A stretch of DNA of 61,623 nucleotides. Source: a virus. Lineage: Duplodnaviria > Caudoviricetes. Location: positions 1 to 61,623 of the IMG/VR virus record IMGVR_UViG_3300002219_000044; one strand, given 5' to 3'. Positions 2,289 through 27,443 of this stretch are shown here, one piece after another. Made by a program: the position numbers and the translations under genes. The notes under the pieces were generated by a model. The model had not been told where the DNA came from and did not search any database. It saw nothing but the letters and a program-made list of their open reading frames with translations. The first letter of the stretch is position 1; each line of letters opens with the position of its first letter.

Positions 2289-3302
2289 TTAGAAGTTTTT
2301 GTCAAATTCGTACCCGGCCAGCGCCCGCCCGTACTCGATTTCTTCCGGCGCATAGTGAGGCGGCAAGACGGGTCTCTGCTTCCTTTCGCCGCCGGGCAGG
2401 GGCAGGGTGTCCATGTTCACGCGGGAAGCCGCCTCGAAAAATCCGATAAGCGCATGGAAATCCGCTTCATCGGCCATGTGCAGCATCGCGGTCAGCACCT
2501 TGTCAGGCACGGCGACAACGGACTTGCCGGCGCATTCAAGTATGGCCTTCCGGCGGGTCTCTTTTGCGGCCTCCATTTCGGCCAGCGCCTTTTTCATGCT
2601 GTCGATCTGTCCGGCCTGGTTTTCGACTTCGGATCTCAGTGCATCCTCGTAGATGGCGGCCCGTTCAAGTTGCTCTTCCAGATCCACGGTCCGGATCTGA
2701 GTCGATGCCACCCAGGAATTGAGATACTTTTCGGCGGTGGCATCCGCCACGCCAGCCTTGCAAATGCTCTCAAGGATCATGTCTCGCGTTTGGCCACCGG
2801 CATTTTCGAGGATATAGCCGCGGTTTGCAGCGAATCCCGGCTGCAGGACATAATCGAATCCGTGGAAATCGCTGATCCGAGTAGCGCCTACCGCGCCGCC
2901 GTCCGTTCCGCCGCAGGCCCATGAAAACCCGCCGACTTTCGAGGCGTTCAGCCCTGTTACGACTTTGCCGGGCGCCGTTTCGAGGATCTCCTGGTGGTGC
3001 TCAACGGCCCCGTCCTTCCCGACTTCGAAAAACACGGTGACATTCGAGGGGATATTTTCCACGATAACGGATGACCCGTCCGGCAGCTTGACCGGCTCGA
3101 CTTCCTCAAGATTCATTTTCCGGGCGATAATCCGCCGGCCATGCCCCAAATAGCCGAAGGCTTCCCGAAGCCGGATCTTCTCCCTGGTGGGATCGGCGTA
3201 GCAAGCCTTGACCGCGCTTTCCAGAATATAGTTCCGGTGGTGGCCGGTGTATTTGCGGCCCTCCTGGAACAGGTTAAAATTGCACTTGATGATTTCTCCC
3301 AT
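2289..3302 (-). CDS. pro: Prohead processing protease, P1 Pro-like
   Basis: GYLGHGRR, GGFSWA, GFDYV motifs; follows portal; GGAGG RBS. Confidence 0.75.
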   Translation of the reverse strand: MGEIIKCNFNLFQEGRKYTGHHRNYILESAVKACYADPTREKIRLREAFGYLGHGRRIIARKMNLEEVEPVKLPDGSSVIVENIPSNVTVFFEVGKDGAVEHHQEILETAPGKVVTGLNASKVGGFSWACGGTDGGAVGATRISDFHGFDYVLQPGFAANRGYILENAGGQTRDMILESICKAGVADATAEKYLNSWVASTQIRTVDLEEQLERAAIYEDALRSEVENQAGQIDSMKKALAEMEAAKETRRKAILECAGKSVVAVPDKVLTAMLHMADEADFHALIGFFEAASRVNMDTLPLPGGERKQRPVLPPHYAPEEIEYGRALAGYEFDKNF

Positions 3303-4996: not shown

Positions 4997-5002
4997 GGCA
5001 CG

Positions 5003-5076
5003 ATTAGAAGCGATTAGCGCGACCGAGTAAATAGCCCAAAAACGGACCTTTAAGACCCAAAACCGGACCTTTCGGT
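5003..5076 (-). promoter_or_regulatory. Late promoter copy 1: tandem activator-like sites plus -35/-10
   Basis: 5025-5076 matches 42390-42441 at 45/52; TTTACT-17 bp-TCTAAT, 6 nt before the portal ATG. Confidence 0.7.
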
Positions 5077-5103
5077 TTTTTTTGATGGGGTGTCTTTTTT
5101 TTG

Positions 5104-5132
5104 TTGACAATAAATATATGACGATATATTTA
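5104..5132 (+). promoter_or_regulatory. Sigma70-like promoter with palindromic operator for accessory island
   Basis: TTGACA at 5104; TAAATATAT-gacg-ATATATTTA at 5111-5132. Confidence 0.6.
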
Positions 5133-5181
5133 TATAACCATGATGAGGGGAGATTGGCTCCCCCAAGAAAGCGAGGCAAAC

Positions 5182-7627: not shown

Positions 7628-8104
7628 TCACTGTTTCAGGAGAAAACCCTTCATCTCCATCTCCGGATCATCGGAAGCGAATTCCACTGAGTCGGATCCG
7701 TCTACTGTCTCCATGACGTGAAACGGGTCATCGACCATATTCTTGCAAATCCGGACCTCTTCATAGGCATGGGCGGCAATGATATTCAGCTCCGGTTTGC
7801 CGTAATCCATCGCTTCGAGCCATTCCAGATCAACGGATTCGCCGAAAGCCAGATCCCCCTGATCGATGTAAACCTTTTTCAACGGCCACCAATACGGGCC
7901 ATATGCCCGGTAACGGGTCGGATCTTTCGTAAGGATAGCCTTTAACCCTGCCAGGAATTTTTTCTTCCAGGCTTCAAGCGTCTGCCCTGCCGTTGCCTGT
8001 TCCAGAATGCCCTGCAGATCACTTTCGGCCGGTTTGCTTATCAGATCCATGTGCGCTTCATCCCTTCTTGGAAAAGTGGGCGCCGTATCAGCGCCCACTT
8101 GCAT
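7628..8104 (-). CDS. ulx: P1 Ulx-like protein
   Basis: YRAYGPYWWPLK motif; ends the darB operon as in P1. Confidence 0.6.
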   Translation of the reverse strand: MQVGADTAPTFPRRDEAHMDLISKPAESDLQGILEQATAGQTLEAWKKKFLAGLKAILTKDPTRYRAYGPYWWPLKKVYIDQGDLAFGESVDLEWLEAMDYGKPELNIIAAHAYEEVRICKNMVDDPFHVMETVDGSDSVEFASDDPEMEMKGFLLKQ

Positions 8105-8139
8105 ATTTACCCTATCATACTATTCCTGCACGATTAAAA

Positions 8140-9501
8140 TCAATAGGCAGATCCCAGGTCCACCTTGCGCCAGTTGGTCCCGGTTATGGTGTTTCCGGCT
8201 GTCCCGCACACATAGAGGTAAGACCCGTCTTGACAGAACTCGTTTGTCAGGCCGACAGTGCCGTCAACGCCGCCTGCAAGGTGCTCCGCGCCCCAGGCCA
8301 CATGAGCCTCAACTCCAGTCTCGGTCTCCGTGGTGGCGATCTCATCGCCTGCAACGCCCTTGGTTTTTGCGGCCACTACCAGAGTGGTCGCATTACTGGA
8401 AACAGCCGTAACGGTAGGATGAACCGCCGCGCACTTGTAATCCGTGTCGGGTGTGCCGGCATGGTTGATGGCGTTTTTGAGATTCAGCAAGGTAGCTTCC
8501 GCGCTTGCCCCTATCAGGACCTCGCCTTCAAGCGGGGTCAATGCCGCCACCAAGGTATAGGTTTTTTCATCGATCGTGATCGTCTGCGCGTCCCGGCCGC
8601 CGGTGAAATACGCGCCCGTGCCGTCCCAGTCGAAATTGCCGACCGTGGTTGCCTTGTCGATCTCGTTGCCTGCAGCGCCGGCCACCTTCGCGGTGATCGT
8701 GGTAGCGTTTTCCGACACTTCCGCGGCCGTAACGTCCGGATGGGCGACGGTCCCGGTGCTGTAAATCGTTCCCACACCTTCGCCGCCGTTGATGGCAAGG
8801 ACAAGATTCGGCAACGGGGTTTCCCCTATAAGCACTTCATTGGGAACCGTGGCGGGATCTGTGGTCAGCGCCGTCTTGAAGGTGTAAACGGTTTCGCCGA
8901 TGGTTACGGTCTCGCCGTCATTGGGCGCTCCGGAAGCGGTCAAAACTCCGGTGGCCGCCGTGATCCCCACGGGCGTTGTTCCGTCAGACGTAAGGGTTCC
9001 GCCGGAAGCGACCGCATTGACCGGGGTCTTCTCTTTGCACACGGTAGGGGATGCAATCAGCACATAGTCAGCCAGGAGCGCCAATACCTCATTGGCTTCC
9101 AGCGACGTGTTGAGCCACACGGCCGCGCCTTCGGTCGGGTCCACGCACCGATAGACCTCTTTCGGGTCTGCCGCTGCATCGATCCAGATAGAGCCTTCCG
9201 AATAGCCTTCCGTGTCATCGTTCGTCACGGCCGGCGCTCCGTCGCCCGCAAGATTGTTCATGACATAGGGCGCATACGCAGCGGCAACACCATCGTCAAA
9301 GGTGTCGCCGACGGTGATCTCCATGGCCGGCCGTTTTGCCAGCACGGCCGCCGCCAGGGCTGTGGCCTTGTCGGCATCGACCGTTACCGACACGCCCGCG
9401 TCGCCGGTTGCACGGCCCGGGACTTCGAAGTCAACGCCATATCCGATGAAACTCAGACCGGATGCACTGTGATTTTCGAACTTGATCGTCTTTTTCAGCA
9501 T
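8140..9501 (-). CDS. Ala/Thr/Gly-rich virion fibre or decoration protein
   Basis: Two ~105-aa repeats (TxTIxExxYT..ALT..EVLIG..AIN..HP.VTA); C-terminal DGSYLYVC..NWRKV. Confidence 0.6.
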   Translation of the reverse strand: MLKKTIKFENHSASGLSFIGYGVDFEVPGRATGDAGVSVTVDADKATALAAAVLAKRPAMEITVGDTFDDGVAAAYAPYVMNNLAGDGAPAVTNDDTEGYSEGSIWIDAAADPKEVYRCVDPTEGAAVWLNTSLEANEVLALLADYVLIASPTVCKEKTPVNAVASGGTLTSDGTTPVGITAATGVLTASGAPNDGETVTIGETVYTFKTALTTDPATVPNEVLIGETPLPNLVLAINGGEGVGTIYSTGTVAHPDVTAAEVSENATTITAKVAGAAGNEIDKATTVGNFDWDGTGAYFTGGRDAQTITIDEKTYTLVAALTPLEGEVLIGASAEATLLNLKNAINHAGTPDTDYKCAAVHPTVTAVSSNATTLVVAAKTKGVAGDEIATTETETGVEAHVAWGAEHLAGGVDGTVGLTNEFCQDGSYLYVCGTAGNTITGTNWRKVDLGSAY

Positions 9502-9531
9502 TCTTGAACTACCTCCTTTTGGGTTATGTTT

Positions 9532-12500
9532 TTAAGCCATTAATTCGTAAATCTCTTTAAGATCCGTGGTAATCGAAACATACCACCACGCGCCGATGAA
9601 TTCTCCGCCAGCGCCCGAAAAGAATTTTGCCCCGAAACGCGCCTTGATGATTTCCTTGACCTTATACAGCATCCCGTATTTTCCGGCCCGGTCCTGGAAA
9701 AACCACTTTGAAAACGGCTCGTGTCCCGTGCCGGCGCGTCCCTTGAATCCAGGGATAGACATATTCGTCTTGTTGGTCTTGACCGTGATTCCCAGTCTCA
9801 GAAACGCCGCTTCAATCTCCTTCGGAACCTCCCTGTATCTCGGGTCTTTTTTCAGGGCTTCGTCCGCGGCCCGTTCCTTGTCCGCCTTTTGGGCCTTGTA
9901 CGCACGTATGAACGTATCCATTATGCCGGCAAAATCATTAATCACCATGCCGGATATCTCATCCCGGTTGTCGCCCAGTTCCACGGCTTCCGCCTTCGCT
10001 GTGTAGGAGGCGTCGTCAACAATGCCCCGAATGCGTCTCTGTGCGCTGATTTCATCCGGATAGCTTTCTGCAAAGTCCGCCGCAGCCTCATCGATGCTTT
10101 TCCCGCCGAGATGTCTTTTGAGGGTGTCGTTCCACGCTTTCGCGCACACGGGCAGGATTTCGGACTCGACGGCCTTTTTGCCGTAGGCCATGGCGGTCTC
10201 TTCGAAGTCGGCGCCGTACATGCTCACCACGATGTTCATTAACCCGTAAACGCCGCTCTTGCCGCCCTCCCGTTTCCTGGCAAGGTACGCTTCGCAGACG
10301 CCTTTTTTGAACTCTTCGTTTGCCGGATCCGGATAGACAATGGCCTCGGCCAGCTTGGAAGCCTGGTGATTATAGTTGCCAATGTTTCGAAAGGCGATTT
10401 TCCCGTTTTCGTCCCTGACAATATAATGCGAGTAATTATCCAGGCCTATTTCCATTCGGTGATCCAGGAAAGTTTCCTTGTCGAGCTTCCCTGCGATCAG
10501 GTCTTCGTACTTATATTTCTGCGCCAGGGCTTTTTTCAGGTCAATTTCCTTCTCGGAATAGGACACTTTTTTCAGGCCCTTTTTTTCCATATCTTCGATG
10601 CTGCTGACATCAAACCAGCCGTAATAATTCCCTACCGCACTGGTTTGCGTCAGGTTGTACGCCCCTAAAGAGCCGACAACATTTTCATACTTGAATGCCC
10701 GAATCTCCGGATTGACATCTGTGATCCGGAACAGCCCACGATACCACCCGCCGTCTGCCCTGAGTTCGTAGCAATCGCCCGCCGCAACGACTTTCCCGGT
10801 CAGCGAAACACAGGCCTTCCCGGGGTTGTCAATCAGCGCCTCATCAAACGGGAGCACTCCCTTCTTGGCCTTCTGCTTTAAAAGCCCGGCTGTCTGCTTG
10901 ATGGTTGAATCCAGTTGGGTGCGCTTTTTCCCATATTTCTCATCCAGCCCCGCCAGACCGGTCTTGCTGTCTGCAAGTTTCCGCTGCGCCCGAATAATCT
11001 TGGTTCCTAAAAGGAGCCGGCTCGGATCATCCTCATCCAATGCAAGGCCCCTCTCTTTGAGGGTTTTTATCTCTTCCTCAAGTTTGGGAATATCCTCTTC
11101 GAGCCGCGTCTTTTCCTTGACTTTTTTTTCGTCCAGCTTTGCCAGCTCGCTGGCCGCATGAGCCAATACCTGCAACTGGTTTGCGAGCCGCTTTTTCTCC
11201 TTGGCTTCATCCTCGGCCTTCTTTGCGGCCAGGCGTTCCAGCCGCCGCGCTTTGGCCGCTTCCGGATCCGCTTCGAGCATGTCCAGCATTTCATCCTGGC
11301 TCATGGCGTTGGCGTTTTCGGCCGTGGCGTCGCCGCCCTCGAAAAGATCCTGCATCCAGTTGGATTTCGCTTTCAGCACGTCCAGCCGGTAAGAGTCGAA
11401 TGATCCCTTGCCGCAATAGTAGTAGATAGCGATATTGGCGGCCGTGTTGCCCTGCCTGACCCCGCGGCCGTTGCGCTGTTGAATGCTGGCCGGCGTCCAT
11501 GGCAGGGTCAAATGGTGAATGGCCGTGGTTCCCTTCTGCAGGTTGACGCCGACCTCGGCTTTTTTGTTGCAGATCACGAATTTCAGTCCGCCGGCATTGT
11601 ACGAATCGGAGATCTTCTGCAGCGCATCGCCGTCGGCCTCATCGGCGTTGATAATGCCGATCAAGTTGGCAATCGTCGGAATATGATGAACAACCAGACG
11701 CAGTATTTTTTGATGCTGCGATTTTTCTTCCGTGAATATGAGCTGCTTCCCGTTCACTTCCAGATCTTTTCTCAGGTTTTCAATCAGCTTGCCGTATTTC
11801 GGCGTGAGCGGGTGCGACACGTCCGACAAGCTGATGCCGGCATCCGCCATGTGGTCAACAACGGTGTTTTCAAACTCTTCCGGAAACACCACAACATAGC
11901 TGTCGTTTTTCACCTGCGACGTGGTTTTCAGCGCAACCACGAACTCTCGCGCCTTGCCTTTTTCGTCGCCTTCCAGGCCCAGCGATTCGTTTTCCTCAGC
12001 GTTCGGTATGCGCCTGATCTTGATGGATTTCGGAAGTCCGCCGATCATGGCGTCCACTTTGGCCTTATCTCCAAGCCGGAAAACAAACGTCATGGTCTTA
12101 TGGTACAGGTCCATGTCCGTAGATACCCGGTCCATTTCCCGGATGATCGTAAACATGCTTTCGCCCTTGTTCCCCGGCTTGGCCGCATCTTTGGCCCGGT
12201 CGCGCAAATCCGAGTAGACTTCCTTCTGTTCGTCCGTCAATTCCACGTCCAGGGTGATTTCCTCGGAAGGCGGGAGCTTGATCTGATCCGGAAAGTCCTT
12301 GGCGGATTTCATGTTGACAAACTTATGGAACATGCTTCTCAGACCGTCAAGGTTCTGGAATCCGGTCAGGCCGTCTACCGATGCGACGGCGCCGCCAACC
12401 TTCATCTTGTCGATGCTCTTGATCTCACCGAAAACCCGGATAAAATCGTCCGGCGTATAGATGCCGTACTTTTCAAATTCTTCAACCGGGCACACAAAAG

Positions 12501-15500
12501 ACAGCATGTTGAAGATCTCAAACGGGCTGTTTGTCACAGGGGTTGCCGACATCATATAAGTTCCGCGGCCGTTGTTCCGGTCCCGGATATGGCTCATCTT
12601 CAAATTCATATCAATGGCGCGTTGCGCCGTGTCCGCCGCGGGCAGGTATGCGACCCGCTGGTAATGCTCTCCGCCGAGTTGAGAGTTTTTGAACTCGTGG
12701 CAGTTTGAGACAAGGACACTGTTTGCAAAATAATTGTGAGTATCGGCTACTTCTAAATCATAGACTGTCTGACCTGACGGATCACCGAGTCCAAGTCTGA
12801 CATAATCTCCTGGTTCCAGAACCTCAATACCGACCACCCTAACGCATTCAAGACCGCCGTTTTCCGCTCTCTGTACGGCCTCACTCGGAAAATATTCCCG
12901 CAATGCCTGCAAACTATGGCGACCCCGCAGGTTCCCCGCTTCGACATATCCCTCCTCTTCTGTCCATATCTTGTGGCTTTCAGTGCAGATAAAATGAGAC
13001 CCGTTTTCAAGCGTTACCTTGATAAGCGGTACAAAAAGCCTTTTTGGAAGCCACCGAACTATCGGCTTCCAAACCAATTCGCCGGTCCCAAGATCCCGAG
13101 AAAGAACATCTGTCTGAATCATATTCTCGCAGATATCCCCAATCTTCATGATGCCTGCCCGCGTCACTATCTCCGTGTCGTAGACAAAACACTCATCAAC
13201 GATCACGTCCGTAAACCCCATATCTTCGAAGTAGGGCAGTTCGCCCTTCTTGGCGGTCCCTTCGTCCGAAAACCGCTGCTGGTTGCGGATCTCATTCACG
13301 TCCTCGGCATACGACTTGCCCTTTACCTTGGTGTCACCCTCAAGCGCCTTCTTTTGCGCCTTCTCCGAAAGCAGGGAGCGATTCACCATCGCGTCGGTGT
13401 AGGTCTGCTTGGTTTCCGGCCGCAAGGGGATCTGCCCGAACTTGTCCTTGGTCATGATCACCAGGGAATAATTCGACGTGGGAATTTTCCACATGGCCTC
13501 CCAGGTATCTTCCTTGGAATCGCGCTTGAGAAGCTGATCCTGGTACATGGGCTTGCCGGTAAACTTGTTGATTTTGGTCTGGCCCTTTTCGTCCTTGACC
13601 GTCTCTTGCAGGATGGCTCCGGTCTTTTTGTCCGTCTTCGGCTCGTATCCGACGATCAATACGCCGTCATGCTTGCCCAAGTAGGTTTTCGATTCGTGAT
13701 ACCAGTTCGCCAGCACAGATTTGGGAACCACGATGCAGGTCTTTTTCGTCCGGCCGAGCTGCTGGTTGTAGGCGTGTAGTGCCAGTGCCGAGAATGTTTT
13801 TCCAAGCCCGACGTTATGCGCCAGGATTCCAGAACCTTCCTCGGACAGCCGCCGGACCGCCGAGTTCTGATAGCCGTGCAGCTTTATTTGAGGCGATACG
13901 CCCTTGATGCCCAGCTCCGTATCTTCGTATTCGAACGGCGTGTAGCCGTTGAATCGGCGGTTGTACTGATCTTCCAGAATGCCGATGTCCGTGTGTTGCT
14001 GCAGCCAGACATTGAACCGCTCTTCAAGTGACGCGCACCGGCTCTTGTACTCCGCAATGCGTTCCTGTGCATCTTCCCCGGAAGACGTGACGTTTTCACC
14101 GTTGAGGTACTTCAAAAACTGCTTATTGAATCCGCCCTTGTCATCGATGCCGATAAATGCGCCAAACGGATTGTCAAAATCCTGGACGAACTTGGTTTTT
14201 TCCTGCATGGTCCCGTCAAACGGGTTTTCTTCCGTCACCGTGCCTACTGTCCCGTAAGACAGTGCCGGATATCCGTTTTCACGCAGGAAATCGACAATGT
14301 ATTTGCGGTTGATCCACCGTTGCCGCATTCCGAAAACAATGTCCTCGGGCTTCGTGGTCTTGCGCCGCCTCATGATCGCTTCGATCTGTTTCAGAAATTT
14401 CCCTTTGAGGCGTTCGTCGGTCTCTTCTCCTATGGCTTGGCGCAAGGCGTCGATCTTCGGGTAAATATCGCCCGCGCTGTACCGGCTCATGGGTTCAATC
14501 ATTCCGTCCGGGGTAATGGCTATGGCGTCTTCGTCCGCCAGATCCGCAAGAGAGTGGATCTCCCGCTTTCCGGAATAGAGCTTTTGGATATCTTCCAGCT
14601 CAAGAGTTTTAATGCCTTCCCGGATAAAAAGGTGCTCCACGATGGCCTGCAGGTTGGTCGAATCGTATTCCAGCGTTCTGCCGGACCCTTCCAGCGTACC
14701 GGCCAGAAGGTCGGTAAACTGGCCTTTTTCGTCCACGGCACCCTTGAACAGGCCGAACATCTTGGACGATTCGCCGATCAGCATAAGCCCCTTGTTGTTT
14801 TTCGGATGCCCGAACCGATCGATCTCTTTCACGACAAGTTCTTGCAGCTCAAGACGGTCGGCGTCTTCCGCAGTCCCGTCATTCACCGAATTCTGATACC
14901 GGGCAATCATGCCGCCGATAACGGACCCCCGGAAAATTTGCTCCTGGTATTCCGTTTTCGGCTGAGACATGGCAAATTCGATGGATGCCTTCTGCAGCGG
15001 GCTTAACAGCTCCGGAAAAGACTTGTATGCCGCAAAGACCTGATCGGCGCTCAGGCCAAGGGTCTGATTGGGATTTGACAGCCTGCCTTTCAGCTCTTCG
15101 ATTGTCGCCGCGCCGTACTTCTGCGCGTCCACGGTGATCGATGAGTTTTCCTGAATGACCCGGACCCACATGCCGTTTTGCATTTCGTATTCAGCGCCGT
15201 TGATCATCTTCCGGTCGCCGTCGATGTAGTTCCGCACTATCGGCTCGGCGACTGCCAGCGCATCCCAGTCGATGCGGGAATTAAACCGCTGCGCGAGCCT
15301 GGCTTTCAGGCCGGCATTGTCTACGTCGCCGTCAACGGTTTCCCGGCTCCACCGGTCCCCCTCGACCTTGGGCATGTATTTGCCCATAATGAATTTCCGG
15401 CCTTCGCCAAGCCAGTATTTCCCTGAAATGAACTCATCCCAAACGACATTGGCGCTTTTCAGGGTCTCGAAGGGTATGGTTTCAATACTCTCCAAGAAAT

Positions 15501-16407: not shown

Positions 16408-16440
16408 TATTTTCGTTTCTCCTGCGTGTCGTTTTGGGTA

Positions 16441-19400: not shown

Positions 19401-20604
19401 CAAGGCCCTGCCAGCCCTTTTCGTAATTTGACAGGTAGGCTTTCCGGGCTTCTGCTTCGGAAGCAAACCCAAGCATTATCTTGTGCTCATCGAACTTGCC
19501 TGATTTGATATCGGTCTGGTTGACGATAAACACCGTTTCGGCGCCTTCGGGATCCGGACCGAGAAAAACGTCTATGTGATCCTTGTCCTTTCCCTCCGTA
19601 CCCTTGATGTAGCCATAGTGGTTATGGATCTTCGATGTCCACCTTTTGCCGTCCGCGCCTATTCCGGATCGCTCCGACCCTGCCGGGTTTTCTATGGCGA
19701 TCTCTAATCCTTGGATAACGACATGCCCCTTGGCGTAATTCCCTGACTTTTTTTGGGCTTCCGTGGGTTCTGGCAGGTCGTTTTCCGGCGATGCCGCGGC
19801 CTTGTTTGCTTCCCGGTCGATTGCCGCCGACTCGGTGATCCTTCTTTTTTTGCCGCCGGCCGGATAAATCTCAATCGCATCAAGTCCGTGCGTAAACGAA
19901 GCATATACCTTGTTCGGCTTTACCGCTGTCAGCCCCAGGAATATGTTTTCTGACATGAAACGAGTCGGGCAAGTACCGTACATTTCGTGTATGGCGTCTG
20001 TTATGTTGTTCCCGTATTTATAGCTGTGAAGTTTGTAGCACCCTGCCGGCAAAGACAAAATCATCGCCCGGAGAAGCGCATTCGTGTCTCCGCCTGAATC
20101 AAGAAACTCGTACCAAAGGTCTGTCTTTTTATCGCGGCTTTTGGCATTTGCAATTTTTTTCAGCCAATCATTGATTGTTTTCGGGCCCGTAGATCCTTCC
20201 ATGATAGCGCCCAAGGGAACGGATTTTAAGACCGGATTGACGTCTTCTGCTTCCAGGGAAAGGTCCGCAAAACCTTCCGGCGGGATAAACCCGCGCAAAA
20301 CCTGAAAGCCCCGGATAAGATTCTGTTTGCCCTGGTAGTAGCCCTGGCTCATGATCAGAATATGGTGAATGTCCGCAGGCGCCGCCATGTCCAGGTCCAC
20401 CGGCTTGCCGTGCATACCGAAGCCGTAAGACTTGAAGTATTCCTTTAAGGCCTGCAGCGGCCGCTCGTATCCTTCCAGCATCGGCGTCAAGCGGATACGC
20501 GCCGGCTCTTCGGTTTCATACCGGGCCGCATCCATTTCCAGCAAGACCGCCCCGGAAAGCGTATCGATCTCAAACAGGTAAGGCGTGACAGGGTAGGGGA
20601 TCAT
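16441..20604 (-). CDS. Polyvalent multidomain protein (InPase-like, LPD3-like, HAD and unknown domains)
   Basis: GNYAKGH..IENPAG..HYGYI..DKDHIDVF..FDEHK; VDLDGTLA..IFTAR..YDD; ATGA overlap at 20601-20604. Confidence 0.8.
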   Translation of the reverse strand: MIPYPVTPYLFEIDTLSGAVLLEMDAARYETEEPARIRLTPMLEGYERPLQALKEYFKSYGFGMHGKPVDLDMAAPADIHHILIMSQGYYQGKQNLIRGFQVLRGFIPPEGFADLSLEAEDVNPVLKSVPLGAIMEGSTGPKTINDWLKKIANAKSRDKKTDLWYEFLDSGGDTNALLRAMILSLPAGCYKLHSYKYGNNITDAIHEMYGTCPTRFMSENIFLGLTAVKPNKVYASFTHGLDAIEIYPAGGKKRRITESAAIDREANKAAASPENDLPEPTEAQKKSGNYAKGHVVIQGLEIAIENPAGSERSGIGADGKRWTSKIHNHYGYIKGTEGKDKDHIDVFLGPDPEGAETVFIVNQTDIKSGKFDEHKIMLGFASEAEARKAYLSNYEKGWQGLGSMAELTVDDFKTWLQEGDTKAPIDDDEILESAGGVLSTLTGKELGENIDSGNAVASARNYFRAKMQGKTVTRQGVGEIRFSGKGWKKFKRGVTTDIKKAKLLPAASAIILRGKHSVSEPFKARNDNITRFHFFDGKVELEGETLLVGVTVGEDEFGHLFYNLNHDPDVLYEKRKAPILPRVEARGSEPYEGQHDAPFNMNINSPGNDVKKKVLESSSNPNSWIGVDLDGTLARYDGWKGYEHIGEPVPLMMDIVKEHLANGETVKIFTARAADPEGIPPVRAWLEKNDLAGLDITNQKDQNMTMLYDDRAAKVVENMGVVLEGAKGVFKKQFAGGKLTKQRGCSTDDKGCEMHYIRYVAYGPTEKIVEETYCDDYGFGIQAKTLKELKKKMAEYGGSSITEAAEDPGWKAAIAGAQSFDELSAAFTKVFPIAGETTAKQKEPWEMTSKEYGESIGSLSFPQTFGMHLPIIIDALKTGKLSHEEYARLYEKDYGNLEEMTGQKRKEPLQRTTPAKGTPERTELDKQVEGHKASLDAAYDALYDAEQARNKSASGSKKRDAAQRKVDKLQTAYNELLHSPVEDQGKIAKWEDVAETGDELQRIEARRLLKLVSDKDGAAMEAELFTERLAKRGLAGDDLTQAVNEALLHSFKMSDGLKKTLEIAEAKQQAPALQADYRRKIDALDISESDKARFKKDVEVSIWPEYMDKAYKDALKLEESVGPGIRGKREAEEIIREEEKERRAALEAAKIKLSDMADKPDPKKFYSRLSNGELREVKGHNLTMFAGIDLFTSKDANGQWAVTEGKSGTALAMGYSTQREAIAAAKELIEQRGGAAGVNKMALNLAKEHGLSPRWAKETESPESGPETVESDNGPTTIKSLLARIIRSKDRKQKDELYLSVYGNDRRMLLEAAILKVKPGTYTLAAEGKTLQSALEPICGLYAALDANKRFLRGMEAKYPKAVITSFTLGLQEVRIKENASKEDVWG

Positions 20605-22490
20605 GCAAATCCTTTCAGTTCTTCGTCCAGGAATATCGGGAGGTCTTCCCACTTTACATCTGAAGGCGTCGCGTGAGCGTCAACCGCCTTTGCAAGGTAG
20701 TACATACTTTGCGCGTTGACAGAAATGCCCTTTTGCAGATACAGCAAATACAGGTAGGCAAAGCTCAGGGCGTTTTTCATGGTTTTAAAAATCTCGGAAC
20801 GAAGGCCATCGTCCGCCCCGTCGGCCGGCAACCGGTAGCTTACAAAAGCCGAGTTTGACTTTTTTTGCCAATACCGGGCCGGGTGTTTTTCAACCCTTAC
20901 AACCAGGCCGCTGTTTTGCCAGAAAGAGCCTTTCTTTTTTACGATCGACTCCAGCCGCTTGTAAAAGTCGGCCAGGGCGTTTTCGTGCCCTTTGGTTCTG
21001 TCTATCGTTTTTGCGAATTCGTCCCGGTGAATCTTGTCCAGTTCGGTCATTTCGGATGCCGCAAACCCAAGCATGAGGCTCAACATTTCCGGATCTCGTT
21101 CGTAAAGCGTTATCATGCTTTCCGGAGTTGAGAGCATCTGCATTCCCATGGAAAGAACCTCGGTAGACGCATGGGGATAGACCTTCCCGACATACGGATC
21201 AAAAAAACTGTCTTCAAATGCGTATTCGTTGGCCCCGTAGTAGGGGTTTCCCGTGATCTTGGACAGCTTCTTTTTCTCAAACCCTTTTACGCGGCTTTCG
21301 CGGAAATCGACCGCCATGCCGTATGCCTTGGCGTTGCGTTCAAGCAGGTGCGCCATCTCATGAAACAAGACCCGCTTATTAAAGTCCGAACCCAGCCGGA
21401 CAACCCCGGTAGTATGGTCCGCATTCGCCCGCTTTTGGCCTTTCGTAGCGATAGATGCAGCACCCAGCTTGCCGCCGGTCAACCGGTAAAACTCCGCCAT
21501 ATCGGCCCGCAAGGATTCTTCCGCGTAACCCCTTTTTTTAAGCCGCTGAATCGCCGCCTTATCAATGCTTTGCCTGCCGGCCCAGTCGGTCGCCTCTTTC
21601 TCGGAAACCGGAGATTCTTTAAACAGGGCTTTTTTCACGGACTCAGAAAATTTTGCGGTTTGTTCTTTCAGATCCTTTTTCGGGCCATCCGTTTCTTCCA
21701 GAAAGGACTTTTCCAAAGCCTCAATGTCCTTATCCCGTCTGGAAAGCAACGGCCAGACATGCTCATCGCGCAGTTTTCTCAACTTCTCTAAAATGGCGGT
21801 TTGCTGTTCGCACAGCTCATTCCATTTCGCACTTTGTGCCTTTTCGTATTCAAACCGCTCATCACCGGAAGAAAAGGGAGGCTGATTTAGGTCATAGGGC
21901 CGGTTGGCCCAGGCAAATCTGAAATCCTTCATGCCAGCATAGAAATCATCATATTCATTCTGCAGCGCCGCTATGCCATATTCTTTTTTGACGCGCTCTA
22001 CCTCTTTGTCGTGAGCGTCCAGAACGCTACTCACCGCGGCCTGACGTTTCGCTTCAATCGTTTTCAGCCGGTTGTTGATTTCCTGCCGTTTTTCCAGAGC
22101 GATTTCCGCCCCGGCTTCCGCCAGCATCACGGCTCCGATTTCCGTGTTGACGGTTCGCAAGTGGCGCCCCACTTCATTCAGCTCCGGCCGGTTTTTGTAC
22201 CATAGCGCGTCGCGGGCTTCTTCTTGTTTCAGCCCGGCCATGGATATAATCCAGGGCTCTACATTATTTAAGGCATATGCAGCCGCATCATAACGCTCAA
22301 CAACGCCGGAGCCTTCTTTATCTTTCAGGATCTCCACCGCCCGCTTTAACCGTCCGGCCCGCTGAAAAGCCTGTTTGAAATCCAGGCCGCCGGGCCCGCC
22401 AAACAGCCCGGAAAACACGTCGAAAATATCATCTATGGAAGCGGCCGAACGAACGGCCGCCTTCCAATCCGCACTTGATTCCAGAATCAT
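20601..22490 (-). CDS. DdrB-like protein with zincin metallopeptidase domain
   Basis: LFHEMAHLLE, YVGKVY..STEVLSMG; Dar operon position. Confidence 0.7.
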   Translation of the reverse strand: MILESSADWKAAVRSAASIDDIFDVFSGLFGGPGGLDFKQAFQRAGRLKRAVEILKDKEGSGVVERYDAAAYALNNVEPWIISMAGLKQEEARDALWYKNRPELNEVGRHLRTVNTEIGAVMLAEAGAEIALEKRQEINNRLKTIEAKRQAAVSSVLDAHDKEVERVKKEYGIAALQNEYDDFYAGMKDFRFAWANRPYDLNQPPFSSGDERFEYEKAQSAKWNELCEQQTAILEKLRKLRDEHVWPLLSRRDKDIEALEKSFLEETDGPKKDLKEQTAKFSESVKKALFKESPVSEKEATDWAGRQSIDKAAIQRLKKRGYAEESLRADMAEFYRLTGGKLGAASIATKGQKRANADHTTGVVRLGSDFNKRVLFHEMAHLLERNAKAYGMAVDFRESRVKGFEKKKLSKITGNPYYGANEYAFEDSFFDPYVGKVYPHASTEVLSMGMQMLSTPESMITLYERDPEMLSLMLGFAASEMTELDKIHRDEFAKTIDRTKGHENALADFYKRLESIVKKKGSFWQNSGLVVRVEKHPARYWQKKSNSAFVSYRLPADGADDGLRSEIFKTMKNALSFAYLYLLYLQKGISVNAQSMYYLAKAVDAHATPSDVKWEDLPIFLDEELKGFA

Positions 22491-22504
22491 TAATCGTCCT
22501 GTCG

Positions 22505-22882
22505 TTAAGGTAGCAGTTCGCCCGGTTCCATCGTCCAGACTGTGATTCCGTATGTAATCGCCAGAACCTTCAACCGGTCCAGATAACGGACATCCCCCGG
22601 CTGTTCGATGATCAGCACGATTCCGGGTTTTTTCCCGGTCATGGCCGCGTAATACAGGCTTTGCCCGACCGCTTCGGCCCACTTTTGCGCGAAGTCGAAT
22701 TCGACCGCATAGGCTTCCATGAGACAATCCACGCGGGCGCTGTCCGGTAGAACGTGCTCACAGACGCCGCCGTGCTCGGAGCACCATTGCGCCTGGTACT
22801 CTTTTTCCAGGGCTGCATGTTTCGCCTGCACGGGCGCCGCAAACAAGAGAATCAACAAGATAAGGACTATGCTCCGCTTCAT
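22505..22882 (-). CDS. Signal-peptide protein with PD-(D/E)XK-like fold
   Basis: MKRSIVLILLILLFAAPVQA; RVDC..VEFD..WAEAVGQSLYY. Confidence 0.6.
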   Translation of the reverse strand: MKRSIVLILLILLFAAPVQAKHAALEKEYQAQWCSEHGGVCEHVLPDSARVDCLMEAYAVEFDFAQKWAEAVGQSLYYAAMTGKKPGIVLIIEQPGDVRYLDRLKVLAITYGITVWTMEPGELLP

Positions 22883-23940
22883 GCCGCCGCCCCCCACAGC
22901 CTGCCGAAAACCTCGCGCAGGGCGCTTTCCATGATAGACGAAACCTTGTCCTTGTTCGCCTCGATGTAAGCGATCGTCGGCGCCTTGATGGGTTCGATGT
23001 CCTTGATCTCTTCGATGATGTCTTTCAGGAGTTTCAGGAAGCCCTCGGGCGGTTCGCTGTTGTACTTGCCGGCCAGAAGGTCGGCGAGTTTCTGGCTTTT
23101 CGGCTGCTGCTTAATGTCCCTGTAAAAGTCCCCTACCGCATCGTCGGGATTTATATAGGAATCGGTTGTCACGGAATTGCCATCGGTATCGTTGTAGTGA
23201 ACAACAAACCCGCTGCCTTTCAGCTCTATCATGGCCTTGACGCCGTTGATGGAAAAATTCTGAAAGAAATCGCTTGGCGTTTCCGCCCTAAGCAGCTCTC
23301 CGCCGTATCCGACAATGGCGTCGATCATTCTTTGCTTGTCGTTCCTTTCGTTTCCGCCTTCGTCGTCTTCGGACTTGCCTTTCCGGAGTTGCCCCAGTGT
23401 TTTCGGCGTCCAATACAGGTCCAGCTCCACGTTGTTTTCTATCAGCTCTTCAATGCTGATATAGCCGACTTCCGCCATCTCGGTATCGCCGTTAAGGATC
23501 GCATAGCCATAGGCCTGATCCTGCGACTCTTCCTTGTCCTTTTCGATGATGTACCAGTCGGACCCGCCCTTGAAATAATGCAGAACGGCCTGCGCGTTAT
23601 TCCCTTTTTCCCGCGCCTGGTAGGTTGCCGGCATGTCCTGAATCGTCTTTGCGATCTCAAGGAACTTGTCCTTGAAGAATTGCCCTTCTTCGCCGCGGGC
23701 GCCGCTGCCCATGGCCGCGAGCTGCGACCGGCCGATAAAATGTTGAATCAGCGGCATGATCTTGTTGACATCGGTTGTGGTGGCCGGGCCCGCCGCGCTT
23801 CCGAGTTTTACCAGCGCTTCGTCCAGGTCCCGCTGCGCCGCTCTTTTCGCGGAAAAGGAAAGGCTGCCGGCTTCAAGCTCCGCCTGCTTTTCGTCCACCG
23901 TTTTTTGCAGGGATCTTTTTTCAGAGAATGAAAGTGCCAT
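22879..23940 (-). CDS. ddrA: DdrA-like protein with inserted DUF2958-like domain
   Basis: Helical termini (LADLLAGKY..FLKLL..AYIEAN); central HYFKGGSDWYIIE..EVGYISIEEL..ELDLYW; follows darA. Confidence 0.55.
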   Translation of the reverse strand: MALSFSEKRSLQKTVDEKQAELEAGSLSFSAKRAAQRDLDEALVKLGSAAGPATTTDVNKIMPLIQHFIGRSQLAAMGSGARGEEGQFFKDKFLEIAKTIQDMPATYQAREKGNNAQAVLHYFKGGSDWYIIEKDKEESQDQAYGYAILNGDTEMAEVGYISIEELIENNVELDLYWTPKTLGQLRKGKSEDDEGGNERNDKQRMIDAIVGYGGELLRAETPSDFFQNFSINGVKAMIELKGSGFVVHYNDTDGNSVTTDSYINPDDAVGDFYRDIKQQPKSQKLADLLAGKYNSEPPEGFLKLLKDIIEEIKDIEPIKAPTIAYIEANKDKVSSIMESALREVFGRLWGAAA

Positions 23941-26846
23941 TATTCAGCGTCCCCCCTTTCCTGTTTTGTTACAAATTTTTCATGTACCTTCTGGCAGGCC
24001 CGGACCGCTTCTTGCGGAGATCTGAACTCGGCGCTTGCGCCCGCTCCGCTCAGTGACCCGTCTTTCCTGATCCACCTGTAACCGGATGCCCCGGGAAGAC
24101 CGAAAGCCCAAGCCGTATAGCCCATATGCCTGCCGCCTTGATCGCTGATCGGGTCCACGCTGTACTTTACGCTCTTGTTCGGCCCAGCGCCCCCGCCGAC
24201 AACGATTCCATAACTCTTCTTGCCGGGCGCCGCGCCCGTGCCACCAGCCATCATGTTCCATTCCGCAAAGCCCGGAAGACCGCCCTTGCTGGCCTTCTCG
24301 AAAAGTTGATCTTCATCCATATCCGGAACCGCCGCATTCTCGAAACAGTCTTCGCCGACATGGAATACCTCGGCACCTATGGAGCCAACTCGGTACTTTT
24401 TGCCGTCGGAATCAACATAGGCCTGCGCCCCGGTTTTCTTGCAGGTCTTGAAAAACGAATTGTAGCCTACGCGGGCGTCATCTATAAAATCAAAGAATTC
24501 GCCTATTGACAGATCCTTAAAGAGTTTCTGCCCCGGCTTCCTTTTTGTTCCGCCCTCTAAGATTTGATCTTCGTCCGGATCCGGGACCGCCGCGCTTTCA
24601 GTCAGGCCCTTGGCTTTTTCCTTCAAGATGACCGTGAGCGCATCCGCCGACTCGTTCAGAAGCGCGTCGTACTTTTCCATCAAGCCCAGTTTTTCAAGCT
24701 GGCCGGCGGCATCGTCCAGCGCCTTGTCAATGGCCTTGGTGTCCTTGCCGTACTTCCCGGCAACGATGCCGTTCAAGATGTCAATGGCCGGCTGTTCCGG
24801 GGCAGTTGAAGGCTCCGGCGGCTCGTTTTTCGCTATCTCTTCCAAGTACTTGGCCTTTAAGGCTTCCGCTTTATCCATCGTTTGCAACGCAAGATCGTTC
24901 GCATCGGTAATGGTTTTTGCGTCAACGTGGTTGAATACCTGGTTGCCATCCTGTAAGGTCACACGGAACCCATCGGTGGAGGTCGAAACGTGGACCTCAT
25001 ACTTGCCGTTGCTGTAGTTAATCTGGTTGTCGAATTCCTGCTTTTTTTCCCACCCATCTGGCAGCACGGTGAGAGCCACAAGCGGACCTCCCCGCTGCCG
25101 TTGATCCTCAGTAAACATGGCGTTATTTATCGTTGATGCCATGCCTGTTACCGACTGACTCATGCCGTCCGGGTATTTGTGCTTTCCGTCCAGAACCCAG
25201 GTAATCGCAACCACATTCCGGCCAGCGCCGACAGATTTGACCTCATGAGACAGCCGGTGCTGTCTCCCGAAACTGACGGTAAACCAGAGATCCGAGCCGT
25301 TGCCTTTTATCTCCCATCCTAAATTCTGGAGTTGCGCCCTGACGTTGAAAAGGCGCTCGGCCATGGCCGGATCGAGAATGTCCTGCAGCGCGATCTGTTT
25401 TGATTCGTCCGCCAGGATCGCGTCGTAACCGCCCGCCTTGGCAATCGCGTCAATTGCCTTATCGTCGGCGCCGGATTCTTTCCAGGCCTTTTCCTCTGCC
25501 GGCTGCAGGGCAGGGGTGCCGGTCTCTTTTTTATCCGGTCCCGGGCCCAACAGTTTGGTCATCAACGCATATCTTCGCTCTCTCAGATCTTCCGTCAACG
25601 AGCCGGCGGATTTTTGCTTCTTATAAAGATCAGCGGCTTCCTCCATATCCTCATACTCACCCTTCCTTTTCGCCAGGAAAATCAGGTTTTCCGAATGGTA
25701 GTTTTCGTCTTCCAGCTTGTCGTAAATCTTATTGAAATCCGCTTCTGACAAAGTCTTGATGGAATCCTCGCCCACCCTCCATACTTCGTTGCCTACCGGA
25801 TCGTCTGTAGGCTTGAAGACCTTAACCTTGTCGCCCGGCCCAAACCGCCAGAACTTGCCTTCGGCTTTCATTCTGCGGTCAAATTCCATGGATTCGTCGT
25901 CGATATTGCCCTTCTTGGTTTCCAGCGCCTTTTTCAGCGAGGCGTTTGTCCGGCCCTCGAACTTTGCCCGGATCTTTTCCTCAAGGGTGCTGCCGCCTTC
26001 CGGCTTGCCTTTATTGCCGGCCTGCTTGGCTTTCAGGGCATCGATTTTGGATTGCAGATCGTTGTTGAAAATCTTCTGCTTTTCGATCCGGTTTCTCAGG
26101 CTGTTCTCCTGCACTTCCATGTCTTCCCCGTCGGCTTGGGCGGTCAGCAACTTGTCCCTGAGTTCGGTGTTCTGCGTTGCCTCGGCCTCTGCTTGGGTCT
26201 TGACCTCTTCGAGCTGTTTTCTTTGCTCGATAAGCGCCTTCTGCGTCGCCTGGAACCGTGCGGAATTCTTTTCGACCAACTGCGTTATCCGCTTGCCGAT
26301 CTCCTGCAGGCTGACCTCTGCGTTACCTTCCGGAGATACCACTTGAGTAATGTCCCGCTTGTTGAGAAGCCAGCGAAAGGCGATGATCTCATCGTCCGCC
26401 AGGATCTTCTTGTTATCGCCGTCCGGGCTGTGGAAAATGATGCTGACAACCTGCCCGTCGCTCATGGGAATCTGTACGGTGACGGTTGCAAACAGGCCGG
26501 ACTTACGCGGCTTTCCAATTTCCGGAACAAGCGCCTCGATGCCCTTGTCCTTCATGTGGCTGTTGAGTACGCGGATCAGTGCCAGCATCTTTTTTTCCGT
26601 GCGGGCAAACTTCTGTATCCGGATCGCTTCAAAAATTTCCTCGGTCGTCATCCGGTCGTTTTCGTCGTCATCCGGGCTGTAGACCTCATTGACCTCATCC
26701 ATGGTGGCCGTCTCGAAAAGCAGCCGTTCCTGCCCCTTGTCGGCGATCAGCCTGTAATAGGCTTCCGATAGCTGGGCCTGGGAAAAGCCCTGTGCGAAAT
26801 AGTCATACCCAAGGGTGATTCTATGGCCTTCCGTGATAGGATTCAT
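23940..26846 (-). CDS. darA: DarA-like internal head protein with inserted and appended modules
   Basis: DGQVVSIIFHSP..AFRWLLNKRDIT..NSARF N-domain; IVAGKY..LDDAA..LLNESAD C-domain. Confidence 0.8.
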   Translation of the reverse strand: MNPITEGHRITLGYDYFAQGFSQAQLSEAYYRLIADKGQERLLFETATMDEVNEVYSPDDDENDRMTTEEIFEAIRIQKFARTEKKMLALIRVLNSHMKDKGIEALVPEIGKPRKSGLFATVTVQIPMSDGQVVSIIFHSPDGDNKKILADDEIIAFRWLLNKRDITQVVSPEGNAEVSLQEIGKRITQLVEKNSARFQATQKALIEQRKQLEEVKTQAEAEATQNTELRDKLLTAQADGEDMEVQENSLRNRIEKQKIFNNDLQSKIDALKAKQAGNKGKPEGGSTLEEKIRAKFEGRTNASLKKALETKKGNIDDESMEFDRRMKAEGKFWRFGPGDKVKVFKPTDDPVGNEVWRVGEDSIKTLSEADFNKIYDKLEDENYHSENLIFLAKRKGEYEDMEEAADLYKKQKSAGSLTEDLRERRYALMTKLLGPGPDKKETGTPALQPAEEKAWKESGADDKAIDAIAKAGGYDAILADESKQIALQDILDPAMAERLFNVRAQLQNLGWEIKGNGSDLWFTVSFGRQHRLSHEVKSVGAGRNVVAITWVLDGKHKYPDGMSQSVTGMASTINNAMFTEDQRQRGGPLVALTVLPDGWEKKQEFDNQINYSNGKYEVHVSTSTDGFRVTLQDGNQVFNHVDAKTITDANDLALQTMDKAEALKAKYLEEIAKNEPPEPSTAPEQPAIDILNGIVAGKYGKDTKAIDKALDDAAGQLEKLGLMEKYDALLNESADALTVILKEKAKGLTESAAVPDPDEDQILEGGTKRKPGQKLFKDLSIGEFFDFIDDARVGYNSFFKTCKKTGAQAYVDSDGKKYRVGSIGAEVFHVGEDCFENAAVPDMDEDQLFEKASKGGLPGFAEWNMMAGGTGAAPGKKSYGIVVGGGAGPNKSVKYSVDPISDQGGRHMGYTAWAFGLPGASGYRWIRKDGSLSGAGASAEFRSPQEAVRACQKVHEKFVTKQERGDAE

Positions 26847-26849
26847 TGG

Positions 26850-27443
26850 TTATGCCGCCTCCTTCAGTTGATCGTATTCGGTCTGCAGCGCGTTTCCGAC
26901 TGCTACCAGGTTTTGATACTCCCTGTTCAGGGCTTCCACGGCGTCCGATTTCTGCGTATTCACCGTCTCGGCCTCAACAACCTGCGCCCTTACAGCCTCG
27001 TTTGCGGCTGATATTTCTGCAAGGGAGGACTGGAGCCGCGTAATCTGTTCGGCCACGCTGGTATTGACCGCCTTGATTTTCGGAACCTTCACCTTGATCT
27101 GTGCAAGCTGCTTTTCCTTCTGTTTCAGGTAGTTCTTTTCGTTGTCGTTCACATAATCAATGATTTCCCGGACCGCCTTGTCCAGATCATCGACGTTCTT
27201 GATTGCCAGCACCTTGTTATTGAGCTTGACCTGGAAAATGCCGCCGCCGGCCTTCGCCTTAACCAGAAGTTTCTGGCCCGACTCGAAGTTGATCAGAGCT
27301 TGCTTTACCAGGAATCCGGATTCCCGCTTCGCCTTGTCGGTCGCTTCCACCTCTCCGACCATCAAGCCCTCTTTTTCGAACTTTTTCAGAATAGGCTTGA
27401 GTCCGACCTTGTTGAACTTTTCAAAATCGATAGTAATTGCCAC
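26850..27443 (-). CDS. hdf: Hdf-like protein
   Basis: GTG start with GGAGG; KRESG..FESGQ..GGIFQVKLNNKV plus coiled coil; upstream of darA. Confidence 0.7.
   Translation of the reverse strand: MAITIDFEKFNKVGLKPILKKFEKEGLMVGEVEATDKAKRESGFLVKQALINFESGQKLLVKAKAGGGIFQVKLNNKVLAIKNVDDLDKAVREIIDYVNDNEKNYLKQKEKQLAQIKVKVPKIKAVNTSVAEQITRLQSSLAEISAANEAVRAQVVEAETVNTQKSDAVEALNREYQNLVAVGNALQTEYDQLKEAA

Follow-up and report, generated by a model that had tools for sequence, protein, structure and literature searches.

The window analysed here is a stretch of 61,623 nucleotides (nt) from the IMG/VR virus record IMGVR_UViG_3300002219_000044. This 61.6-kb source record represents part of a P1-like myophage and encodes a capsid protein, a portal, the prohead protease Pro, a sheath, a baseplate and tail fibres; those Pro homologues whose source is named come from Desulfobacterales. 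Nine consecutive genes on the minus strand, running from 27443 to 7628, include homologues of all P1-type Dar genes (hdf, darA, ddrA, ddrB, darB and ulx), the ddrA and ddrB matches being partial. The main subject of this analysis is one of the nine products, a protein of 1387 amino acids (aa), in which a short peptide that may be read by the head protease recurs between the domains. The Dar locus and the relevant head genes are as follows.

26850-27443, minus strand: Hdf-like protein (phrog_1620, E 1e-26)
23940-26846, minus strand: DarA-like protein, 968 aa (DarA_N, E 6.5e-29)
22879-23940, minus strand: DdrA-like protein (phrog_1855, E 5e-6, C-terminus only)
22505-22897, minus strand: orf130
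20601-22490, minus strand: DdrB-like protein with a HEMAH zincin motif (match to the C-terminal HExxH region of P1 DdrB only, E 9e-15)
16441-20604, minus strand: 1387-aa polyvalent protein (InPase, LPD3, HAD-like)
9532-16407, minus strand: DarB, 2291 aa, methyltransferase and SNF2-type helicase
8140-9501, minus strand: orf453 (weak PHROG match, phrog_33012, aa 58-133)
7628-8104, minus strand: Ulx-like protein (phrog_1629, E 1e-32)
2289-3302, minus strand: Pro (P0002), prohead protease, the proposed processing enzyme (32% identity to P1 Pro, E 5e-40)
3323-5179, minus strand: portal protein, T4-type, with VME598|SA near its C-terminus
40695-42302, minus strand: major capsid protein (32% identity to P1 gp23)

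Intergenic spacing across the nine genes ranges only from -19 to +33 nt, and therefore the Dar genes are regarded as a coupled operon. Together with Pfam and PHROG matches that back the gene names, this spacing and the open reading frames (ORFs) bear out the coupled operon of about 20 kb and the gene order proposed in the initial annotation. The DdrA-like match is confined to the C-terminal 53 aa. The DdrB-like protein probably starts with the ATG at 22490, which has an AGGA 8 nt upstream, and the end of its gene overlaps the start of the 1387-aa gene by 4 nt. The latter sits among virion genes: it lies between ddrB-like and darB, and portal, Pro, capsid, sheath and tail-fibre genes are present in the window, where pro adjoins the portal gene.

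In the numbering of the 1403-aa ORF, an InPase domain at 298-433 (E 1e-56, 190.9 bits) and an LPD3 domain at 473-578 (E 1e-13, 51.8 bits) both score above the Pfam cut-off, and a HAD-like module at about 628-730 is recognised by a match to phrog_1238 and a DLDGTL motif. Because these three reside in one polypeptide, the 1387-aa protein qualifies as polyvalent by the usage of Iyer et al. 2017. Pfam searches at E up to 10 with the N-terminal domain, the following R1 region and the C-terminal 584 aa returned only a sub-threshold DUF2188 match, and a search of the ESM Atlas with the N-terminal domain gave no usable match.

The strict form of the recurring motif is [ILVF][LTFMI]E|[SAG], in which the bar marks the cut proposed after Glu. 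Seven sites had been pointed out in the initial annotation, and the coordinates confirm all seven. They are given below for residues P3 to P1 in window numbering on the minus strand, together with the number of alignment ends of homologues that fall within 10 aa of the site.

20197-20205, minus strand: IME136|GS, junction of the N-terminal domain and R1 (4 alignment ends; weaker site)
19831-19839, minus strand: ITE258|SA, junction upstream of InPase (13 alignment ends)
19309-19317, minus strand: ILE432|SA, junction of InPase and LPD3 (16 alignment ends)
18757-18765, minus strand: VLE616|SS, junction of LPD3 and the HAD-like module (13 alignment ends)
18433-18441, minus strand: VLE724|GA, junction downstream of the HAD-like module (8 alignment ends)
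18196-18204, minus strand: ITE803|AA, followed directly by the 'DW-helix' at aa 806-834 (4 alignment ends)
16795-16803, minus strand: TVE1270|SD, start of R2 (non-canonical, with Thr at P3, and not conserved)

All seven sites had been taken as boundaries, and this stands for the six at E136, E258, E432, E616, E724 and E803, which lie at module junctions. In the 13 closest homologues, the motif is found at the position that corresponds to ITE258. Two further strict matches, VTE1204 and LLE1311, lie inside conserved modules, away from the junctions. The codons vary among the seven sites (Leu CTT, TTA or CTG; Ser TCG, AGT or TCT; Ile ATC or ATA), and therefore conservation acts on the peptide and not on the DNA; a DNA-level recombination signal at the junctions was rejected for the same reason. 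Cleavage at the seven sites would produce the following fragments, in the numbering of the 1387-aa protein.

aa 1-136: N-terminal domain
aa 137-258: R1
aa 259-432: InPase
aa 433-616: LPD3
aa 617-724: HAD-like
aa 725-803: small module, 79 aa
aa 804-1270: 'DW-helix' and helical region, with a weak DUF2188 match
aa 1271-1387: R2

R2 is a paralogue of R1, and the same C-terminal module of homologues matches both.

The abundance of the strict motif was compared with the expectation from residue shuffles (300 per protein). The 1387-aa protein contains 8 copies against 1.68 expected, a number that is reached in 0 of 300 shuffles. Pro contains 3 against 0.44 and the DarA-like protein 4 against 0.90, each value being reached in 4 of 300 shuffles, and the capsid protein contains 2 against 0.44 (22 of 300). 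Among the 55 ORFs examined, two strict matches each are also found in PmgG-like, phrog_1053 and fibre-like tail proteins, and therefore a motif match alone is no mark of a head protein. For two of these, one matching phrog_1053 and one PmgG-like (37656-38309 and 36938-37651, minus strand), two matches are reached in 17 and 7 of 300 shuffles, and one copy reads GGMVLE18|AAGG near an N-terminus. The copies in these two tail-region proteins could be due to chance or could mark further substrates.

Further evidence on the motif comes from the arrangement of modules in homologues. A search of 5.8 billion proteins gave 59 matches, and the 12 closest homologues were read. They are built from the same modules, namely the N-terminal domain, InPase, LPD3, HAD, the R domain, the DW-helix region and a DdrB-type ParB domain, in different order and number, and the tetrapeptide stands at their seams (NILE|SAESVL, NITE|SASIDREA, AILE|SAQGG and VILE|SAGSW). 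An all-against-all BLASTP comparison was carried out with 18 polyvalent proteins: the window protein, the 12 closest homologues and 5 proteins from relatives defined by their capsid proteins; G004_32887, which is identical to P0009 over its last 800 residues, and five shorter or DarA-type ORFs were excluded. Of the internal alignment ends, 460 of 992 lie no more than 10 residues from a strict motif, where coverage would predict 99, a 4.6-fold enrichment in which the 992 ends are not independent events. Alignment starts cluster at -5 to -1 from the motif and alignment ends at 0 to +4. Such clusters coincide with 55 of the 85 strict sites, the consensus of which is [IV][LF]E|SA, and Ser occupies P1' in 43 and Ala P2' in 35 of the 52 distinct junction contexts. 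An exchange of modules at motifs is therefore seen in the homologues, in line with the gain or loss of modules that had been named as a check on the idea. A search of phage GenBank entries with the 1387-aa protein yielded 489 records that share the InPase domain only, with no full-length relative.

The same peptide is found at the known maturation sites of P1 head proteins. P1 gp23 is cut between E120 and S121, as established by Edman sequencing of the mature N-terminus SVAAEM, and in the account of PMC9024508 this is the sole cut mapped for head maturation in P1. The residues around it are AMLE|SVAAEM, and VLE117|AA of the window capsid protein (41952-41960; reading MVLE|AAN) aligns with them. 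All 11 capsid proteins compared, from the window, P1 and nine IMG/VR relatives with 52-80% capsid identity, have [ILV][LF]E|[SA] in this column; in the nine relatives it reads ILE|AA, LLE|AA, IFE|SA, VLE|SA, VFE|SA or ILE|SS. P1 DarA loses a fragment of about 9 kDa, and its model from cryo-electron microscopy (2026) lacks residues 1-69 (PMC12810830). P1 DarA reads LLE68|A69 at this propeptide boundary, and 10 of 10 DarA homologues have the motif in the column aligned with it; in the DarA-like protein of the window, IFE73|A (26628-26636) stands exactly at the start of DarA_N. Maturation of both the capsid protein and DarA is attributed to Pro in P1 (PMC9024508, PMC12810830). P1 Prt has ILE559|S in the region that matches VME598|SA of the window portal. 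The DarA-like protein has further sites.

position 6, minus strand: ITE6|G
24597-24605, minus strand: LTE750|S
24555-24563, minus strand: ILE764|G

Its C-terminal part (24300-24610, minus strand) also contains a duplicated acidic linker, AAVPDPDEDQILE|GG and AAVPDMDEDQLFE|KA, which flanks a module of about 75 aa. A second motif lies upstream in both families: TIFE56|S in the capsid proteins of the window and all nine relatives, not in P1, and LLFE|T, LLLE|S or MTE42|S in DarA homologues. By analogy with SPN3US, for which this is reported, such second motifs suggest that the propeptides may be cut into pieces.

Pro carries three strict copies, YILE28|S, MILE178|S and FFE290|A, and YILE166|N outside the strict form; L165, E166, L177, E178 and E290 are invariant across 30 homologues. 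Ser127 and His54 of Pro are invariant residues as well. P1 Pro has 7 matches to a looser form in which Met at P3 and Val at P2 are also allowed. Such copies would be the pattern expected of a self-processing head protease. Pro matched no Pfam family, and a profile of the 30 homologues found nothing meaningful among PDB sequences, so that gp21 of T4 is indicated by fold search only: with an AlphaFold model of Pro (predicted local distance difference test score (pLDDT) 74.8), T4 gp21 chains are the top three PDB matches (probability 0.93-0.96; template-modelling (TM) scores 0.44-0.50 on the target), and herpesvirus proteases come next. T4 gp21 cuts after L/I-X-E (PMC9026906). The Pro family comprises 219 members found by search. 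Three Pro homologues (P0075, P0077 and P0078) have an extra N-terminal module of about 190 aa, which in P0075, where it is an LPD3 module, and in P0077 is joined to Pro via VTE|SV, and in P0078 via ITE|SA. The junction of the added module lies about 15-20 residues before the usual Pro start, and P0077 and P0078 begin with MSEL[LI]FILE|.

Comparison with other lineages indicates that the motif tracks the phage group and not the domains, as would be expected of reading by a lineage-specific enzyme. Both the window protein and 5 of the 6 InPase-bearing proteins of the capsid-defined relatives have it immediately upstream of InPase, and the sixth of these begins with InPase. A scan of IMG/VR with the whole 1387-aa protein gave InPase matches only, and these 22 loci served as an out-of-lineage control. 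There, the motif is found upstream in 2 of 22 and downstream in 1 of 22, and distant polyvalent proteins have Ala/Pro-rich linkers in its place. An alternative definition of the clade by any shared non-InPase module mixed lineages and mis-projected domain starts; its upstream counts (10 of 17 against 2 of 38) were not used as the main result.

A profile search identified a segment of about 28 aa, designated the DW-helix, which reads roughly D-W-K-x-A-I-x-x-A-x-S-F-D-D-I-x-x-V-F-x-x-x-F. Its copies in the window are as follows.

16318-16404, minus strand: DW-helix in DarB
22379-22481, minus strand: DW-helix in the DdrB-like protein
18103-18189, minus strand: DW-helix in the 1387-aa protein

DarB starts with M-I-F-E|S followed by the DW-helix at aa 7-36, the DdrB-like protein starts with M-I-L-E|S-S followed by the DW-helix, and in the 1387-aa protein the DW-helix comes directly after ITE803|AA. 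The DW-helix is also found at the N-terminus of DarB in six relatives (MILER-ALPDWK...), in two of them weakly (E 0.004 and 0.76), and within polyvalent proteins of relatives (G001-G009). In P1, a reporter is directed to capsids by the first 30 residues of DarB alone (PMC9024508). When 12 P1 proteins were scanned with the DW-helix profile, none matched at E up to 10, and therefore the link to this 30-residue signal is positional only. These placements make the DW-helix a candidate capsid-targeting signal. The N-terminal domain (aa 1 to about 120), which is always N-terminal in relatives, is a second candidate targeting or propeptide module.

Taken together, the 1387-aa protein is probably a precursor that is cut at its junctions by Pro in the head and whose products are injected separately. 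In the proposed mechanism, the Dar genes would form one late operon for proteins packaged into the head, and the N-terminal domain, the DW-helix or both would bring the precursor into the prohead. Pro, with its T4 gp21/assemblin-like fold, would then cut after Glu in [IV]-[LF(TM)]-E|S/A/G, in the same reaction that would remove the scaffold-like N-terminus of the capsid protein and the propeptide of DarA. This would release about 7-8 products, namely the N-terminal domain, R1, InPase, LPD3, the HAD-type phosphatase, the 79-aa module, the helical piece and R2, with sizes of about 9-20 kDa each except for the helical piece of about 51 kDa. The products would be stored in the head and ejected with the DNA, and the DarA-like protein would likewise shed its C-terminal modules. 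Packaging, the cleavage itself, Pro as the cutter, ejection and the anti-defence activity of the products are all steps that we infer. The polyprotein model of the initial annotation is thus partly supported: all comparative tests run agree with modules that are strung together, separated by head-protease sites and released as units, but two of the seven sites are not conserved.

Several observations weigh against this interpretation. The strict motif was set only after inspection of the data. The positions of IMEGS and TVESD read I[NED]TDNG in R-domain homologues, and because these have no Glu at P1 the two are not conserved sites. Conserved modules contain the remaining 30 of the 85 strict matches (e.g. 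HVIE|AAKLIKK), typically with Ala at P1', and therefore the tetrapeptide alone cannot define a cut. The claim that every recognisable domain is bounded by the motif holds for InPase, LPD3 and HAD in the window protein, but fails after InPase in 5 of the 12 homologues (P0004, P0006, P0007, P0008 and P0012), where InPase is followed by a conserved VERGxxGSYRQD segment without the motif; in the first four of these, the segment runs straight into the HAD module. An AlphaFold model of aa 1-1190, built from a 13-row alignment, is poor (mean pLDDT 49). The six junction sites lie in segments with pLDDT below 50, as does 65% of the model, and 3 of the 6 are placed within low-confidence helices; the best-modelled part is the N-terminal domain (pLDDT 66-90). 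The Foldseek E-values between Pro and gp21 are weak (0.035-0.067, none at or below 0.001). P1 itself also offers difficult cases. P1 DarB has no strict motif and is present in virions as a 250-kDa protein (PMC5512222). P1 DdrB has one strict site, LFE441|S, the products of which (about 48 and 61 kDa) do not fit the 76-kDa processed form relayed by Iyer et al. 2017 (PMC5512222); a looser site, IGE737|A, would give about 81 kDa.

The motif could instead be a junction or docking peptide that is not cut in these proteins, serving as a packaging tag that binds Pro or the scaffold or as a linker for cassette exchange, so that the protein is delivered whole. Delivery of very large intact proteins has precedents in P1 DarB and the N4 virion RNA polymerase (PMC9024508, PMC5512222), and the matches inside modules are presumably left uncut. 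In addition, the motif lies 4-6 residues from the N-terminus in DarB, the DdrB-like protein and the DarA-like protein, which is an odd place for a useful cut, and the exposure of the sites is not visible in the structure model with its mean pLDDT of 49. However, one copy of this very peptide is the experimentally mapped scissile bond of P1 (PMC9024508), and the capsid-targeting leaders of T4 end in the protease motif and are removed (PMC9026906). The codon variation between sites means that DNA-level homology does not hold the motif in place, and the preference for Ser at P1' and Ala at P2' over the 52 junction contexts is as expected of protease subsites. An uncut peptide is therefore considered rather unlikely. 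Accidental matching, in which a short loose motif has been picked by eye in a long protein rich in Glu, Leu and Ser, is a different objection. The loose form [ILVMT]xE[SGA] has 15 matches in the 1387-aa protein and 13 in DarB, and the strict form is not enriched in DarB (3 against 2.46 expected; 128 of 300 shuffles reach 3). Such an accident can hardly explain, however, why no shuffle reaches the 8 strict matches of the 1387-aa protein, why alignment ends are 4.6-fold enriched at the motif, why the motif is kept at all aligned capsid and DarA sites (11 of 11 and 10 of 10), and why it is so rare beside InPase in other lineages (2 of 22 upstream, 1 of 22 downstream).

The precursor may also be processed by another enzyme. 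The adjacent DdrB-like protein contains the HEMAH zincin, which could act before packaging or after injection. Its gene is translationally coupled to that of the 1387-aa protein, ending 4 nt inside it, and the protein is similar to P1 DdrB over the latter's C-terminal HExxH region (E 9e-15). Moreover, Iyer et al. 2017 argue that metallopeptidase (MPTase) domains process polyvalent proteins into units (PMC5512222). However, the peptide at the junctions is shared with the maturation sites of the capsid protein and of DarA, which P1 is held to cut with Pro, and further copies occur within Pro; cutting after Glu is typical of T4 gp21-type head proteases (PMC9026906). Nothing was found that ties the motif to the zincin, and no Pfam model matched the zincin region of the DdrB-like protein at E up to 10. 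Processing by the zincin thus appears improbable, and cleavage of the 1387-aa precursor by Pro is preferred.

A broader reading is that this lineage uses the head protease as a true polyprotein-processing enzyme and follows a cargo grammar in which a targeting element, a module and [IV][LF]E|SA are repeated and cassettes are swapped at the cuts. This is put forward tentatively, as a possibility that may well prove too general. If it is true, each infection would deliver at least eight small enzymes, all separate and all encoded by one gene, and cassette swapping at cut sites extends to fusions onto Pro itself.

Other genes of the operon show features of their own. The product of orf130 is hydrophobic at its N-terminus, in the manner of a signal peptide (MKRSIVLILLILLFAAPVQA), and neither Pfam nor PHROGs gave a family match; secretion would be odd for a protein among head-internal ones. 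The 453-aa product of orf453 is rich in Thr, Ala and Gly and has internal repeats of the type 'TxxAxxxxxGxAGNxI'; its gene lies between darB and ulx, where P1 has nothing. DarB contains a mini-intein of 163 aa (window 12703-13191, minus strand) that splits helicase motif II (VIVDE|C...VSN|CHEFKN). Its Pfam Intein_splicing match of 23.7 bits is below threshold. Six DarB homologues of relatives have an uninterrupted DE[CSA]H.[FY]KN at this position, and the alignment with P1 DarB omits query residues 1073-1230.

The individual ingredients of the proposed system are already known: head proteases that cut after Glu, capsid-targeting leaders, Dar proteins and polyvalent proteins. The initial annotation had considered the processing logic undescribed for polyvalent proteins. 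This is incorrect because Iyer, Burroughs, Anand, de Souza and Aravind proposed in 2017 that polyvalent proteins are processed into individual functional units (PMC5512222), and the head proteases of T4 and SPN3US trim injected proteins after L/I-X-E or A-X-E (PMC9026906, PMC10052503). Full-text literature searches, the scope of which did not extend to supplements and some original P1 papers, found no consensus for the P1-type head protease, no description of it at the seams between domains in polyvalent or Dar proteins, and none of module exchange at those places. A consensus for the Pro protease of P1 is proposed here. If confirmed, the present reading would turn a general conjecture of polyvalent protein processing into a specific rule with a named enzyme, a defined scissile peptide and predicted products with their new N-termini. 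If it is true, the injected cargo would become predictable from the sequences of uncultured, metagenomic phages. P1 is a standard delivery vehicle, and the rule could also guide the loading of several foreign proteins into P1-type capsids from one construct.

The closest known system is the Dar system of P1, a type characterised by virion proteins that shield incoming DNA against type I restriction. All six Dar homologues are present here along with Pro, portal and gp23; the Dar proteins of P1 are head-internal, and DarA and gp23 are processed, with the same peptide at both sites. In P1, however, the Dar genes are arranged in two operons, whereas they form one operon here, with orf130, orf453 and the 1387-aa polyvalent protein as extra genes. 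The DdrB-like protein keeps the zincin region only, and in some relatives the ParB-type domain of DdrB forms part of polyvalent proteins. P1 DarA lacks the C-terminal extension of 330 aa, with modules flanked by the motif, that is present in the DarA-like protein, and DarB here, unlike that of P1, contains a mini-intein. The strict matches differ as well, P1 DdrB having the one at LFE441|S and P1 DarB none.

The polyvalent proteins described by Iyer et al. 2017 share with the 1387-aa protein the combination of unrelated effector domains in one virion-associated polypeptide, including InPase (PF18823) and LPD3 (PF18798) (PMC5512222). Processing was assigned there to embedded zincin MPTases or to assemblin-like peptidases, which were noted as C-terminal fusions to some polyvalent proteins. 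The passages on processing in that paper define no cleavage sequence, whereas a stand-alone head protease and an explicit, lineage-specific junction peptide are implicated here.

The proteases T4 gp21, which acts on IPI-III and Alt, phiKZ gp175 and SPN3US gp245 resemble the proposed system in their assemblin fold, in a three-residue motif ending in Glu after which they cut and in substrates that are later injected. These proteases cut themselves, and short N-terminal leaders end in the motif. However, their cuts mostly remove N-terminal, or rarely C-terminal, propeptides or destroy the scaffold, and do not split chained enzymatic domains; for SPN3US, 13 of 14 mapped sites are described as N-terminal propeptide removals (PMC10052503). 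Separating unrelated enzymes that are strung together would put this machinery to a new use. In its logic it would resemble polyproteins encoded by eukaryotic RNA viruses, in which one reading frame encodes many units that are separated by a virus-encoded protease at short conserved junction peptides. In contrast to these, with which no parts are homologous, processing here would take place in the prohead of a DNA phage, for delivery into the next host.

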